This document shows positions 50,801 through 60,679 of a stretch of DNA of 61,188 bases, in pieces. Position 1 is the first letter of the stretch; each line of letters starts with the position of its first letter. Source of the stretch: Parcubacteria group bacterium. GTDB lineage: Bacteria; Patescibacteriota; Minisyncoccia; Portnoybacterales; UBA2143. A program made the translations under genes and the position numbers. The notes beneath the pieces were generated by a model. The model saw only the letters and a list, made by a program, of their open reading frames with translations, was not told the origin of the DNA and did not search any database. The stretch is from contig NYYU01000006.1 of NCBI GenBank assembly GCA_002685955.1, positions 1 through 61,188 on the forward strand, in the 5' to 3' direction.

Positions 50801-51436
50801 ACAGACATATTGCACTCAAGATAACCCGAGAACTTGATTAGGAGTTTTACCATCCAAAGCGCAATGTTTTGTATTGTTGTAATACATATTCCATAATTTT
50901 AATTTGTATTGCAGCTCCTCAAATGATTTGAACCGCAATTGATCATAAAACTTCTCTTGATCTGTTCGATGACTTCTTTCGACCTTACCATTCTGAGCTG
51001 GTTTACCTGGGTCAATCAGATAATGGGTGACATTTAAATTGTTACACGAAACATCAAAGTCATGCAGTCGAACATTAAGAGGATCTTTTGACATTGCCTG
51101 CCCCAAATATCTATTAAATCCCAACTAATCTTTTTAGCGCATTGATTTTTATCCTTTCTTAATTCAACTATTCGTTCTTTGACACGTATGGGCGTTTCAT
51201 TTGGATTAGTCTTAGGCCTTCTTGATTTGTTTTCAAGACCATCAAAGCTAAACTTCCTGAAACTTGTAAGCCAGTATTTCAAAGAACGTTCAGAAAAAGG
51301 ACAGACCCTTGTCATTTGCTTGATAGATATTTCTTTATTAAGAATTGGCTTTATCCAACGATATTTTTCTTCTTTTGTTGATTTGGGCATTGTTTTCATA
51401 TGCCCTCAGATTAGCAGAAAAGTGCAATATGTCTGT
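50801..51436 (-). mobile_element. Internally deleted IS (rve-type transposase remnant) with perfect 16-bp terminal inverted repeats
   Basis: ACAGACATATTGCACT at 50801-50816 and its exact reverse complement at 51421-51436. Confidence 0.7.
50816..51399 (-). pseudogene. Transposase remnant: HTH N-terminus and C-terminal end of the DDE/rve domain in different frames, catalytic middle missing
   Basis: The 51034-51399 ORF (HTH-like) and the 50816-51124 ORF (GKPAQNGKVERSHRT) match the two ends of the intact transposase at 59671-60660. Confidence 0.7.
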
Positions 51437-57054: not shown

Positions 57055-57370
57055 GATGAGGACATCTGACTCCGCCGTAGGCGGAGTCAGCCCACCCAAG
57101 CCGCCAACCGCCTGACGGCGGAAGCGAAACAGAAAACTTTTACTTTTAAGCCGGCGCCAATTTCTCTTTTCAATTAAAGGATTAAAATTTTTCTGTTTTG
57201 CCCTTTTGCTTTGCAAAATGGCGGTCCCACCCTAGGTCCGCCTGCGGCGGACTGGCAGACGGGCAAAAATTCCTTACCCCAGACCCCCTTCCTTTTTGCC
57301 CGTCTGCTTGGGGTTTATTCTGAAATTTTTTGGGGCGGGATTCCAAAAGCGGCGGGTGGGTGGGATTAGA
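57055..57370. repeat. GC-rich, hairpin-dense non-coding block (REP/BIME-like cluster or structured RNA)
   Basis: Hairpins at 57066-57090, 57108-57121, 57235-57252 and 57254-57308. Long-range complement between 57092-57106 and 57349-57364. Confidence 0.45.
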
Positions 57371-57394
57371 AAATTTATTAAACCTCATTTCTGT

Positions 57395-57994
57395 TCAGTT
57401 ATAAATCTTTTCGGAAATTTTATTATCATGCTCAGCCATGCTTTGTAGTTTATAGTCTGGAAACAAATCTTTCAAATCCGTTTCTTTGAAAAATGAATCA
57501 ACCACTCCTTCTGTTTGCTTGTAGTTTAAATTTAATTTTTCTGTCTTCCTTAAAACTATTAAGTGAATCAACTCATGAGCGATAGTCTCATTTGCCTGCT
57601 TAATATCTAATTCGTTACTTATCCTTAAATCAATAATATTAGGATATTTAAATTGTCCTTCTGGGCCATACAAAGAAACATAACAAAGGTATTTGTCCTT
57701 TATTTTCTGATTGTGTTTTTTTAGAATACTAAAAAACTTGTCCTCAATTTTTTCCCAATTACTCTTCGCTGTTTTAACTTTCTCCTTATAATCCTCTTCT
57801 TTATATATCTTATTAAATTCTTTTTCTAGCTCTGTTTTAAATTCATTTTTGTTCTTGCTTTCCTGATATAGCTTTTTATAAAACTTAGGCAAAACAATAG
57901 GAAAATCATTATCAAGAAACCACTGGTATTCGGAGTGGATATTCAATAATCTTTGTATTTCTCTTGTTTTTGATGATAAAAAAGATAACCTCAT
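57395..57994 (-). CDS. HExxH-motif protein (putative zinc metallopeptidase), otherwise hypothetical
   Basis: IAHELIHLIV motif; Lys/Glu-rich. Confidence 0.45.
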   Translation of the reverse strand: MRLSFLSSKTREIQRLLNIHSEYQWFLDNDFPIVLPKFYKKLYQESKNKNEFKTELEKEFNKIYKEEDYKEKVKTAKSNWEKIEDKFFSILKKHNQKIKDKYLCYVSLYGPEGQFKYPNIIDLRISNELDIKQANETIAHELIHLIVLRKTEKLNLNYKQTEGVVDSFFKETDLKDLFPDYKLQSMAEHDNKISEKIYN

Positions 57995-58021
57995 AATTTT
58001 ATTATAACCATAATCTTAATA

Positions 58022-58068
58022 AATAAAAAGTGGCCAAGGAGATGTGATCTTTATTTTCCCCTTGGCCA
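58022..58068 (-). terminator. Rho-independent terminator of the RiPP cassette
   Basis: Minus strand: TGGCCAAGGGGA...TCTCCTTGGCCA stem followed by TTTTTATTT. Confidence 0.7.
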
Positions 58069-58076
58069 GTTGATGT

Positions 58077-58337
58077 TTATTCAAAGAGACCGGCTTCTTT
58101 AAGTTGTTCTGCGATAGAGATAACTTCATTCATCGGATCCTCCATGTTTGGAAATCTGTCTTTTGCGGCTTCTCCGATTTGCCTTATAGTTTTACCTCCT
58201 TCCATTTGGCCGGCAATAAAAGCGCCCGCTTCGTTGAAAGTCAGAACTCCTCTTGTTTCAAAGAAACCAATCCAGCTTTCAATGTCCTGCCTGATTTTAA
58301 ATCGGCAGCTTATCCTGGGTTTAAAGGATTCTTCCAT
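58077..58337 (-). CDS. PqqD-family peptide chaperone (RRE-like); start at MEESFKPR
   Basis: AAGGAGG lies 5 nt before the ATG at 58335-58337. The LTFNEAGAFIAGQMEGGKTIRQIGEAA...IAEQLKEAGLF pattern is PqqD-like. Confidence 0.65.
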   Translation of the reverse strand: MEESFKPRISCRFKIRQDIESWIGFFETRGVLTFNEAGAFIAGQMEGGKTIRQIGEAAKDRFPNMEDPMNEVISIAEQLKEAGLFE

Positions 58338-59337
58338 TTTGACCTCCTTGCGCAATAAATTCGTCCGGCGCATACATCCCACCGCCATATTGAGAAGCGG
58401 AACATCCTCCGCCACAGAAGCTATCGCACTTGCGGCATTTCTCCGGCAACCATTTTAGCGAACGGAAATGGGCCAATTTTTTGGTCCATATTTCAGTGAG
58501 TGGTGTTTCAAGAATATTGCCGTAACTGCCTTTAGCAATGGAGCAAGACCGAACATTGCCCATATGGTCTATATGGCCGAATCCCGTCCCCTGCCAACAT
58601 CCAATAACAAAGCCGTGATATTTCTCGGGCAAGAGACACAAGGGAAAAGCATCGCCCAAATTGGCCAAAACACCCAACTCTTCTCTGATACGCTCCATTT
58701 GGGAAAAAGCACTCAAGTAATCATCAAATGAAAGTCTGTTCTTCTCCCAATCAGACTTCGCTTTTCCGTAAGGCGTTAATCGGCCGGCGTTTATCTCATC
58801 TATGCCTACCCCATTCTCCCTGAGCCATTTACAGGTTTTAAACAGAAAAGGAAGATTTTCTTTCGTGAGAGTATAGAGAATTGATATACTCAATCCCCCT
58901 TCAAGACAAGACCGCACACCGCTTATCGCCGCTTCGAAAGAGCCCGGAACTTGAGTAATATTCTCATAAATAGATTCTGGACCATGCAGTGAAATAGCTC
59001 CGGTTTTAATCCGATGTTCTCTCATTTTCCGGACAACCTCCCTGTTTATATGTGTTCCGTTAGAAACGAAAGACAGGAAAAAATCCATGGAATCGGCAAT
59101 TTCTATCACTCTTGCCCACTCCGGATAGGTAAAAAATTCTCCACCGAAGAGACGAACCTCAAATACTTCCGCTCTTTTGAGTTCTTTGAGAATAGCGACG
59201 ACTTGATCGAAAGACGGATGTTCTACGCTGCTGCATCCCATTTCAGCGTTGAAGCAGAACTTGCAACTTAAATCGCACACTGGCGTCACCTCAAAATTAA
59301 CCGAAAGAGGAGACTTAAGAGTTACCAATTCGTTCAT
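58321..59337 (-). CDS. Radical SAM / SPASM-domain peptide maturase
   Basis: CDLSCKFC cluster, GGEFF, and C-terminal auxiliary-cluster cysteines (GCWQG..., SCS..., CRKCDSFCGGGCSAS). Confidence 0.88.
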   Translation of the reverse strand: MNELVTLKSPLSVNFEVTPVCDLSCKFCFNAEMGCSSVEHPSFDQVVAILKELKRAEVFEVRLFGGEFFTYPEWARVIEIADSMDFFLSFVSNGTHINREVVRKMREHRIKTGAISLHGPESIYENITQVPGSFEAAISGVRSCLEGGLSISILYTLTKENLPFLFKTCKWLRENGVGIDEINAGRLTPYGKAKSDWEKNRLSFDDYLSAFSQMERIREELGVLANLGDAFPLCLLPEKYHGFVIGCWQGTGFGHIDHMGNVRSCSIAKGSYGNILETPLTEIWTKKLAHFRSLKWLPEKCRKCDSFCGGGCSASQYGGGMYAPDEFIAQGGQNGRIL

Positions 59338-59366
59338 TTTGTTCCTCCATAATCTTAAATTAACAA

Positions 59367-59391
59367 GGGCGAAGATGTGTCATCTCCGCCC
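59367..59391 (-). promoter_or_regulatory. Intercistronic hairpin (attenuator/terminator-like) between precursor and maturase
   Basis: Minus strand: GGGCGGAGATG-ACA-CATCTTCGCCC (11 bp) followed by TTGTTAATTT. Confidence 0.55.
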
Positions 59392-59412
59392 TGTCCGGTT
59401 GTAGGCTTGCGC

Positions 59413-59529
59413 CTATTTGCAGCATTTGCAGGTGCATTCGCCCCGGCATTTCATGTCGGCCAGCCGCATCTTTTTGATTTTGGGTTGGCGGCCTCTCAGA
59501 ACGCTAAACTTCGCCACGGAAGCTTTCAC
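59413..59529 (-). CDS. Candidate RiPP precursor peptide, 38 aa: (M)KASVAKFSVLRGRQPKIKKMRLADMKCRGECTCKCCK
   Basis: Own codon-by-codon translation. GTG start lies 9 nt after GGAGG. 5 Cys occur in the last 11 residues. TAG stop at 59413-59415. Sits directly upstream of the maturase. Confidence 0.6.
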   Translation of the reverse strand: MKASVAKFSVLRGRQPKIKKMRLADMKCRGECTCKCCK

Positions 59530-59589
59530 GGTCACCACCTCCTTTCTGTGTATTTTTTTATGAAAAAACTGTTATCCTCCTTTGATTAT

Positions 59590-59619
59590 ATATTAGCTAT
59601 GATTTACCAAGTTTGTCAA
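59590..59619 (-). promoter_or_regulatory. Sigma70-like promoter of the RiPP cassette
   Basis: Minus strand: TTGACA, 18 nt spacer, TAATAT. Confidence 0.45.
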
Positions 59620-59634
59620 GGTTTAGTGGTATTA

Positions 59635-60679
59635 TCCACGCACATATTCAGCATGATACAATGAGAGCATATGAACAAAAAAAAGATATGCCCTCATTGC
59701 CAAGCAAATATGCGCGAGCAATGGATAAAATTACATTTGGAAAAGAAGATACCTATAACCGAGATAGCTGAGTTGTCCGGCTATCATCAGGATACTCTGT
59801 ATATTTGGAAAGCTAAATATCTAAAACATGGCCGAGAAGGGTTAATTCCTCAATCTAGAGCGCCTCATAGTCATCCTAATGAGTATACAAATGGAGTTAA
59901 GTCAAAGATTAAGCTTTTAAGGAAGCAGGGTCGGGGCATATGTGCAGATATTATCAAAATCAGATTAAAGAAAAGATATGATGTTAAAGCATCCAGATCA
60001 GGCGTAGCCGGCTTTCTCAAGAAAGAGGGATTAGTTAATCCTAAATTAAGTAGAAGAATTAAAAACAAGAAGAAAAGGGTTAAAAAGTGTAAAATACACG
60101 AACCAGGTCAGTTAATTCAGTTTGATGTTAAATATGCCTTTAAATCGTTTGCTGATGCATGGTTTTATCAGTATTCAAGTATTGATTACTTGACCGGTAT
60201 TGCCTATGGAGCTATCTATGAGATACAATCTAATTTAGAAGGAATATTATTTACTAATTCATTATTGAATTTCTATCCTTTTGAGATTAAAGGAATTCAG
60301 ACAGATAATCATGCTACATTTACTAATAGGTATGTAGGATATCTTAAGAGCTCTAATCCATTAAATCCAAGATTGCATCCCTTTGATCTTAATTGCCAAA
60401 AACTAGGTATTGAACACTACTTGATTGACAAGGGCAAGCCGGCCCAGAATGGTAAAGTTGAGAGATTCCATCGCACTTGCGAACAAGATTTCTATCAAAG
60501 AGAGATATTTAAAGATCTTAATTCGGCCCGAAAGAAGTTTAGAGACTTTCTTTACTATTACAACAATAATCGAGAGCATTTGGGACTTGACGGCTTAACT
60601 CCTTTAGAGAAACTTAAAACAATTACTGGATTTGAAAAAGTTAAATCATTAAATCCTTAATGCTGAATATCATCGTGGA
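59635..60679 (+). mobile_element. Intact IS element (rve/DDE transposase, IS481-like architecture)
   Basis: Imperfect 19-bp TIRs: TCCACGCACATATTCAGCA (59635-59653) versus the reverse complement of TGCTGAATATCATCGTGGA (60661-60679). A single transposase ORF lies between them. Confidence 0.8.
59671..60660 (+). CDS. Transposase, HTH + rve (DDE) integrase core
   Basis: Catalytic-core blocks (FDVKY, QTDNH, GKPAQNGKVERFHRT). Confidence 0.88.
   Translation: MNKKKICPHCQANMREQWIKLHLEKKIPITEIAELSGYHQDTLYIWKAKYLKHGREGLIPQSRAPHSHPNEYTNGVKSKIKLLRKQGRGICADIIKIRLKKRYDVKASRSGVAGFLKKEGLVNPKLSRRIKNKKKRVKKCKIHEPGQLIQFDVKYAFKSFADAWFYQYSSIDYLTGIAYGAIYEIQSNLEGILFTNSLLNFYPFEIKGIQTDNHATFTNRYVGYLKSSNPLNPRLHPFDLNCQKLGIEHYLIDKGKPAQNGKVERFHRTCEQDFYQREIFKDLNSARKKFRDFLYYYNNNREHLGLDGLTPLEKLKTITGFEKVKSLNP

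Follow-up and report, generated by a model that had tools for sequence, protein, structure and literature searches.

A four-gene module of candidate phyla radiation bacteria that probably makes a radical SAM-modified peptide of a new family

We describe a four-gene module in a 61,188-nucleotide stretch of DNA from a Parcubacteria group bacterium (contig NYYU01000006.1 of GenBank assembly GCA_002685955.1; hereafter "the window"), which, judged from its sequence, probably makes a ribosomally made peptide with post-translational modifications (RiPP) that is altered by a radical S-adenosylmethionine (SAM) enzyme and belongs to a new family widespread in the candidate phyla radiation (CPR, or Patescibacteria). 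Four genes travel together under selection in many CPR lineages: a peptide gene, and genes for a predicted peptide binder of the RiPP recognition element (RRE) type, a predicted radical SAM enzyme with three clusters, and a protein that resembles zincins. The module spans ∼2.2 kb and is present across ∼15 named candidate phyla. The genomes of CPR bacteria are tiny, and the natural-product pathways known from them are few; here, a 2.2-kb module and its regulatory RNA structures have been kept across the ∼15 phyla despite the reduced genomes. Families of radical SAM RiPPs that are new turn up frequently; even so, its spread across the CPR, its minimal core and its new zincin make the module a good target for experiments, and a 38-aa peptide with three small proteins is a very small system for heterologous reconstitution. 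Relatives of the enzyme number 111 in the protein database, their named carriers being nearly all Patescibacteria, and the loci that we retrieved around its homologs comprise 28 from genomes and 79 from metagenomes (labeled L001 onward).

A preliminary description of the window, made from its letters and open reading frames (ORFs), had read three of these genes, together with a promoter, a hairpin and a terminator, as a self-contained RiPP cassette of a CPR-type bacterium. When the sequence was re-read, each element it listed lay on the minus strand just where it had been placed, and all cassette elements of the window are on that strand (Table 1). The core of that reading, a Cys-rich precursor with a SPASM maturase and a PqqD/RRE protein, is supported by conservation and by the peptide-modifying structural neighbors of the enzyme, and the CPR-type host by the named relatives. 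Two of its statements gave way, namely that the unit is self-contained and that it includes no dedicated protease: a fourth conserved gene, of the HExxH…E type, lies past the terminator and belongs to the unit.

The hidden 38-aa ORF that had been proposed as the precursor is, by comparison across loci, a real gene that is translated and under purifying selection at the protein level; we draw this from its conservation, its invariant residues and its synonymous codon variation. Among the 83 loci that include the enzyme start and at least ∼160 nt of DNA upstream, 82 have a small ORF with a Cys-rich C-terminus ending 39–107 nt before the radical SAM gene; in the 83rd the precursor is truncated by the contig end, yet its ...NTCRCCK is still visible. 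The preliminary description had staked its reading in advance on such conservation at homologous loci, and the gene is conserved there, with selection acting on the protein. In an alignment of 24 diverse precursors that covers three clades, F10, C34 and C36 never change, and conservation of G32 is 90% or higher. Among 30 distinct genes of clade A, each of the conserved Cys, Gly and Lys codons takes synonymous forms (TGC/TGT, GGN, AAA/AAG) with no change of amino acid. The leader bears a conserved K-F-S-V-L-x-G motif, whose F-S part lies ∼20–24 residues from the core, G-x-C-x-C plus extra Cys. Three precursor types can be told apart by their C-termini: KC[ARQT]G[EQ]CTC[RK]CCK, the type of the window (where the C-terminus reads MKCRGECTCKCCK), G-x-CKCKCKCN, and SQCAGMC[RK]C[LN]. 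The start codon is read from a GGAGG 8 nt 5′ of the GTG at 59529, seen in the sequence and covered by a Shine–Dalgarno (SD) scan; an alternative earlier GTG in the ORF list, at 59538, is only 2 nt from this GGAGG, and the close homolog L001 has ATG where the window has the GTG at 59529. A database of 5.8 billion proteins includes only 24 such peptides, all without a name; most precursor genes are absent from public annotations, and automated mining thus under-reports the family. The precursor has no match at E ≤ 1 among the NCBIfam and Pfam models.

The predicted maturase belongs to the radical SAM superfamily and to its SPASM subgroup, as had been proposed, with Pfam matches above threshold to Radical_SAM (PF04055, E = 2e-19, 70.7 bits against a gathering score of 29.5) and SPASM (PF13186, E = 2e-7, 31.5 bits against 21.5). 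Ten Cys are conserved in it: in a 23-sequence alignment the radical SAM motif C21-x3-C25-x2-C28 is invariant, as are seven auxiliary Cys (C234, C247, C265, C301, C304, C308, and C312), which make the SPASM set complete, and D325 is invariant too. The SPASM part includes C247-x12-G-x4-C265, and its last block is CX2CX3CX3C, where the canonical form is CX2CX5CX3C. For an AlphaFold (AF2) model of the enzyme (predicted local distance difference test score, pLDDT, 86.7), the closest PDB structure is the sactisynthase SkfB (6efn, E = 8e-18, TMq 0.69), in accord with a PDB sequence search that also returns SkfB as best match; SuiB, anSME, PqqE, and EpeE are further structural neighbors. The modeled enzyme therefore sits among the peptide-modifying SPASM/Twitch enzymes, a placement that does not reveal its reaction.

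The neighboring small protein matches PqqD (PF05402) with 29.3 bits, above the gathering score of 23.4, and the overlap of its gene with that of the enzyme, noted in the preliminary description, is real. A PqqD homolog lies 3′ of the enzyme gene in most loci, and in a sub-clade of 456–481-aa homologs the PqqD domain is fused to the enzyme C-terminus; these natural fusions tie the two proteins functionally. An adjacent or fused PqqD-like domain and a conserved short precursor with leader and core are both present, so that the module qualifies, at the level of predicted genes, as an RRE/PqqD-dependent RiPP system. By analogy with RRE proteins, the PqqD-like protein would bind the leader through the F-S motif and present the C-terminal core, ∼20–24 residues on, to the enzyme. 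Precursors of the fused clade (L015–L020 and L084–L090) have an extra N-terminal 12–20 aa, hydrophobic or amphipathic (e.g. MGRLFGVLALALSG...), which may be a short signal-like segment or an added recognition helix; window-type precursors are without this stretch.

By sequence comparison, the conserved unit runs past the terminator to 57395 and takes in the fourth gene. Clustering of ORFs found a ∼200-aa family directly after PqqD and on the same strand in 82 loci; where at least 1.3 kb of downstream DNA is available the gene is present in 64 of 66 loci, the two exceptions being members of the most distant clade. DNA homology between the window and the closest loci extends from ∼59600–59648 to ∼57406–57425, which is exactly four genes, and the flanks are unrelated. 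When all ORFs within ∼4 kb of the enzyme were clustered for ∼100 loci, no conserved exporter, immunity gene or further tailoring gene appeared, and no other neighbor was shared by more than four loci; an exporter or immunity gene would thus be no part of the proposed unit.

The fourth protein has the marks of a metallopeptidase. Among 63 distinct sequences, H140, E141, H144, E162, and G113 are invariant and D166 is 98% conserved. Its AF2 model (pLDDT 93) has a three-strand sheet (strands 102–124), an HExxH helix (128–153) and a helix (158–171) that carries E162 and D166; this predicted layout is that of a zincin core, and the protein has the zincin/gluzincin motif. We consider it probably a leader peptidase of a new small zincin family; in the unit it would remove the leader. 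Metallopeptidases that remove RiPP leaders include members of M1, M16, M61, M103 (TldD/E), M50, and M79 (PMC10885120). The fourth protein resembles them in its HExxH with a downstream Glu, as in gluzincins, and in the position of its gene beside the modifying enzymes; unlike them, it is a stand-alone protein of 199 aa that reaches the threshold of no peptidase model in Pfam or NCBIfam, and its gene has a predicted promoter to itself and a probably leaderless transcript.

At E ≤ 1e-3, a profile search with the HExxH family collects 496 clusters (50% identity). The family, to which the module could give a function, thus extends beyond the cassette. Its distant members have sub-threshold matches solely to zinc-peptidase families (SprT-like, DUF5700, Peptidase_MA_2, M78, and DUF2268). 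That the family is always linked to radical SAM genes was considered and rejected, as three distant members stand in unrelated contexts; another radical SAM gene, accompanied by a CxCxC peptide, lies next to one distant member. A sister system is found at L108 (400–2458), where a distant HExxH homolog (P0263) is divergent from a 378-aa radical SAM/SPASM gene whose product is only 23% identical to the window enzyme, and where a 52-aa ORF ending ...ALFRSLRG...PLCQCKCRR lies directly 3′ of the radical SAM gene. Peptide type and zincin are alike in this locus and the window, whereas the gene order differs.

Table 1. Predicted features of the module in the window
Feature	Position	Strand	Details
Sigma-70-like promoter (plausible)	59590..59619	-	TTGACA-18-TAATAT; scores 10/12; upstream of precursor gene
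Precursor peptide gene	59413..59529	-	GTG start; 38 aa: (M)KASVAKFSVLRGRQPKIKKMRLADMKCRGECTCKCCK
Stem-loop (hairpin 1)	59366..59392	-	12 bp; between precursor stop and enzyme ribosome-binding site
Radical SAM/SPASM peptide maturase	58321..59337	-	338 aa; Pfam matches
PqqD-like peptide-binding protein (RRE)	58077..58337	-	86 aa; overlaps enzyme gene by 17 nt
Intrinsic terminator (hairpin 2)	58019..58068	-	12-bp stem, 14-nt loop (hairpin 58068-58031), then T-run; ends three-gene operon
TATAAT -10 box	58001..58006	-	6 nt before fourth-gene ATG; no Shine–Dalgarno
Fourth conserved gene	57395..57994	-	199 aa; cytosolic HExxH...E zincin-like protein

The module has the generic features of radical SAM/RRE RiPP systems, as far as these can be predicted from its genes, and fails every specific family model tested. 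Among the best 25 of 74 NCBIfam matches of the enzyme, none approaches its family cut-off: AhbD (99.7 bits, cut-off 500), WgkB (88, cut-off 650), MftC (80.1, cut-off 265), PqqE (55.8, cut-off 381), PapB (NF047865; 47.5, cut-off 340), and SkfB (TIGR04403; 44.8, cut-off 300). The 86-aa protein likewise scores below the NCBIfam PqqD equivalog models (17 against 46 bits, and 21.9 against 101 bits). The preliminary description had named sactipeptide, ranthipeptide and SCIFF pathways as the likely affiliation, and the searches with curated models did not bear this out for any of the three.

Sactipeptide systems (SkfA/SkfB, and subtilosin with AlbA) share with the module a radical SAM enzyme with auxiliary Fe–S clusters, a Cys-containing ribosomal peptide and an RRE/PqqD-like guide. 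They differ in that their RRE is an N-terminal domain of the enzyme, whereas here it is a separate protein or a C-terminal fusion; the core here takes up the last ∼7–12 residues of the peptide, with no acceptor region set apart from it; an ABC transporter and a C39 peptidase are lacking; and the hosts are CPR bacteria rather than Firmicutes. With the SkfB model (TIGR04403) below its cut-off, the enzyme is not placed in that sactisynthase family, and the resemblance seen is structural only. The ranthipeptides, including SCIFF (CteB and Tte1186), and PapB are similar in having a short Cys-rich precursor beside a SPASM maturase within a minimal gene set; here, in contrast, no conserved Asp, Glu or Thr acceptor stands at fixed spacing from Cys, and a dedicated HExxH protein is added. 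Membership in this group is not supported either: PapB stays below its cut-off, no SCIFF maturase model is among the best 25 of the 74 enzyme matches, and the precursor matched no model, that for the SCIFF precursor included.

The early steps of pyrroloquinoline quinone (PQQ; PqqA/D/E/F) and mycofactocin (MftA/B/C/E) synthesis are alike in gene content, a small peptide, a stand-alone PqqD-type chaperone, a SPASM enzyme and a peptidase, and also in a target at the C-terminal end of the peptide. The module differs from them in having no Glu/Tyr or Val-Tyr target and no further tailoring genes, and its HExxH protein has no relationship with M16 or with the creatininase-type MftE. It belongs to neither pathway by the models applied, PqqE, PqqD, and MftC all being below their cut-offs; the window precursor contains no Tyr, and it ends in CCK, not Val-Tyr. 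In 2022, graspetides, which use ATP-grasp enzymes, were reported as the first RiPPs of CPR bacteria (PMC8939145). We found no published description of the present four-gene system in the full-text literature, with subscription-only catalogues (e.g. the 2022 JACS atlas of radical SAM RiPPs) outside our reach.

Several observations weigh against a peptide-modifying pathway with a leader-removing zincin. The HExxH protein has no significant sequence match in Pfam, NCBIfam or the PDB (the best in Pfam is SprT-like at E = 0.06), and a Foldseek comparison of its fold with the PDB gives chance-level hits only, headed by the gluzincins LTA4H/M1 (LTA4H at E = 0.96). Distant members of its family often occur away from any radical SAM gene, and the precursor alignment has no visible conserved cleavage site in the leaders. 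The lack of a conserved exporter is unusual for a secreted peptide. Finally, the enzyme scores against the thioether-forming SkfB and PapB are no better than those against heme/PQQ enzymes (such as AhbD and MftC).

As to chemistry, the enzyme would generate a 5′-deoxyadenosyl radical and modify the G-x-C-x-C segment, and the outcome may most likely be intramolecular thioether cross-links through the cysteine sulfurs. The residue between the core cysteines varies (T, K, R, or P), for which reason attack on the backbone C-alpha, of the sactionine type, fits better than a link specific to a side chain; since the invariant core is Gly plus two Cys only, a Cys-centered reaction independent of any acceptor side chain fits best. 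Sulfur-to-C-alpha thioethers are accordingly our leading guess, a tentative one that we would stop just short of calling probable. Very small rings of this type are reportedly known from the enteropeptins, which we take as a lead rather than as a test.

Rather unlikely, in our estimate, is a RiPP module whose enzyme catalyzes some reaction other than CxC thioether formation, such as C-alpha epimerization, an anSME-like conversion of Cys to formylglycine, a thio-oxazole-type heterocycle, or a C–C or new sulfur cross-link. It is favored by the presence of anSME (Cys oxidation) and EpeE (an epimerase) among the structural neighbors, by scores for SbtM and other non-thioether families that are as good as those for thioether families, and by the same invariant core of cysteines and one Gly, which offers no conserved acceptor side chain. 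Thioethers are, however, the commonest outcome for characterized RiPPs with Cys-rich cores and SPASM enzymes, and the best structural match is the sactisynthase SkfB. An anSME-like activity in particular would go with the recognition motif C/S-x-P/A-x-R, which the precursor does not have. As regards the non-RiPP family of anaerobic sulfatase-maturing enzymes, which is outside the best 25 NCBIfam families, anSME is a structural neighbor at E = 3e-13, behind SkfB and SuiB, and the genes conserved around the enzyme, among which a sulfatase substrate might be sought, are those of the four-gene cassette only. Whichever reaction applies, the module could reveal how a SPASM enzyme acts on a bare CxC motif.

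Expression of the four genes appears to be organized in two transcription units. The promoter upstream of the precursor gene would drive a three-gene operon with strong ribosome-binding sites, the first gene giving the 38-aa precursor. The promoter site named in the preliminary description is present, and a match of at least 9/12 is found in 21 of 51 homologous loci, mostly with the −10 box ending 20–80 nt before the precursor start; it does not rise above chance locally, as three promoter-like matches were found in the region against 6.5 expected, and this lack of enrichment makes the match alone weak evidence. We regard the promoter, given its good placement, as plausible and no more. In clade B (L013, L014, L022, L078, L082, and L083), an extra conserved-looking hairpin is seen in the 5′ untranslated region of the precursor, between promoter-like boxes and ribosome-binding site.

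Hairpin 1, first described as a GC hairpin at 59367–59391, is one base pair longer in our folding, in which the 75-nt spacer reaches −23.4 kcal/mol (z = −4.0 against shuffled sequence; 0/200 shuffles were as good). Of 59 distinct loci, 56 have a stem here of 6 bp or more (median 13), formed by sequences that are unrelated, and the median z is −4.2; a strong T-run follows in only 20% of loci. Leaky terminators and stabilizers of mRNA 3′ ends are a common route to more precursor than enzyme, and hairpin 1 is probably one or the other, setting a high precursor-to-enzyme ratio; by ending or stabilizing most transcripts just past the precursor stop, it would keep precursor mRNA more abundant than enzyme mRNA.

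The arrangement of a short ORF with clustered Cys codons, then a hairpin, then the enzyme genes is also what a Cys-sensing attenuator would look like, in which the small ORF would be a leader peptide and no substrate, and ribosome stalling at its Cys codons would control the hairpin. We reject this explanation as extremely improbable. Across 54 loci the coding tail pairs with the hairpin arms no better than shuffles do (median z +0.4, 2% below −2), so the Cys-codon region has no antiterminator pairing; most of the hairpins have no strong T-run; the N-terminal F-S motif, like the Gly, is preserved in the protein, for which an attenuator has no need; a peptide-binding PqqD partner accompanies the enzyme; and L108, a related locus, has its Cys peptide gene 3′ of the enzyme gene.

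The strong terminator of the preliminary description is there as hairpin 2 (−22.2 kcal/mol, z = −3.95, 0/200 shuffles as good), which a consensus scanner overlooked because of its 14-nt loop. A comparable hairpin after PqqD is conserved across loci, in its structure though not in its sequence, 67% of them with at least six T in the 9 nt past the stem, and by these features it is a canonical terminator. The gene beyond it, for the HExxH protein, probably has a separate promoter and a leaderless mRNA, given a −10 box close to its start and the lack of a Shine–Dalgarno: a TATAAT-like box lies at most 20 nt from the start in 40 of 57 loci, and an SD-like 4-mer precedes it in only 1 of the 57.

The GGAGG-type ribosome-binding sites reported for all three operon genes, and their rarity among neighboring genes, were both upheld: a 5-nt SD precedes only 7 of 60 window ORFs, and three of the seven are these cassette genes. 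Any 4-nt SD is found before 16 of the 60, so that the host rarely uses Shine–Dalgarno, and in several window genes a TATAAT-like box directly precedes the start codon; the pattern suggests frequent leaderless translation in this host. Within one unit, then, genes with strong SD sites would stand beside a gene that is probably leaderless, in a genome where Shine–Dalgarno sites are seldom used.

In base composition, too, the unit has two parts. The three-gene operon has 45% G+C and the fourth gene 28%, against 36% for the window; over 43 loci the operon is ∼5.7 G+C points above its flanks and the HExxH gene ∼5.8 below, with a gap between them of up to 25 points. The contrast holds in hosts with 29% to 59% G+C, and both parts track host G+C, from which we take it to be intrinsic to the genes. 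Recent horizontal transfer, which the operon G+C might have suggested, was rejected on account of the recurrence of the contrast in the 43 loci, and carriage of the module by phages was rejected as well, with zero true relatives among the viral contigs of IMG/VR.

This long residence in the host, for which the tracking of host G+C argues, and the retention of the module in many reduced genomes would also suit a quite different product, an intracellular cofactor or metal-binding molecule derived from the peptide in the manner of PQQ or mycofactocin, with the radical SAM enzyme altering the Cys cluster at the C-terminus and the HExxH peptidase then excising a small fragment that the cell retains. 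The combination of a peptide, a PqqD chaperone, a SPASM enzyme and a peptidase follows the same gene logic as the first steps toward PQQ and mycofactocin; the MftC and PqqE models match the enzyme over full length, though weakly; a product that stays in the cell would explain why neither an exporter nor an immunity gene nor any other neighbor is conserved in ∼100 loci; and the core is a dense cluster of thiols of the metal-binding kind. However, tailoring enzymes of the cofactor pathways (PqqB/C and MftD/F) are absent, the residues after CxC vary in number and kind (CCK, CN, CL, and CRH) where PqqA and MftA termini are fixed, and the patchy CPR distribution, adjoining insertion sequence (IS) elements and duplication in one locus make the module look accessory rather than core. 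On balance we think such a cofactor quite unlikely. Slightly less so, while still unlikely, is that the G-x-C-x-C core undergoes a new radical SAM chemistry (e.g. tiny sulfur rings that join adjacent residues, or a thiol cage that binds a metal or cluster) and that the product, released by the zincin, acts as a cofactor or metallophore, and not as a secreted bacteriocin, inside the cell or at a symbiont–host interface; if this were true, it would mean a lineage-wide peptide-derived metabolite in bacteria thought to be nearly without secondary metabolism. A radical SAM-modified RiPP with leader removal by the zincin, as set out above, remains the account we favor.

A few observations concern the surroundings of the module. 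In L009 (2410–7480) the four-gene unit occurs twice in tandem, the copies being exact and repeating every 2536 bp, which may reflect either a real duplication or a fault of the assembly; the same locus has a second, unrelated radical SAM/SPASM ORF (L009:80–1093). In the window, a complete IS element (59635–60679) lies directly upstream of the cassette, its end 16 nt from the −35 box, with 20-nt inverted repeats at 59635–59654 and 60660–60679 and a transposase ORF on the plus strand (59671–60660; HTH_28 and rve_3). Related rve-type transposase genes are found near the cassettes of L001 and L044. A degraded, frameshifted transposase gene is located at 50828–51396, ∼6 kb past the far end of the cassette; its protein is 31–52% identical to that of 59671–60660, and at the DNA level it is 89–92% identical to the sequence that adjoins the cassette on its upstream side in L001 and L061. 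The ∼8 kb between the two IS copies holds the cassette and several helix-turn-helix (HTH) regulator genes. A GC-rich (∼47%) non-coding block (57060–57390) separates the HExxH gene from an XRE-type HTH gene; it has several perfect palindromes (e.g. 57255–57269 with 57293–57307) and no match to any Rfam family, and may be an element resembling repetitive extragenic palindromes or miniature inverted-repeat transposable elements, or a structured RNA. Similar GC-rich structured inserts of 100–150 nt are seen in L003 and L018, between the PqqD terminator and the HExxH gene.

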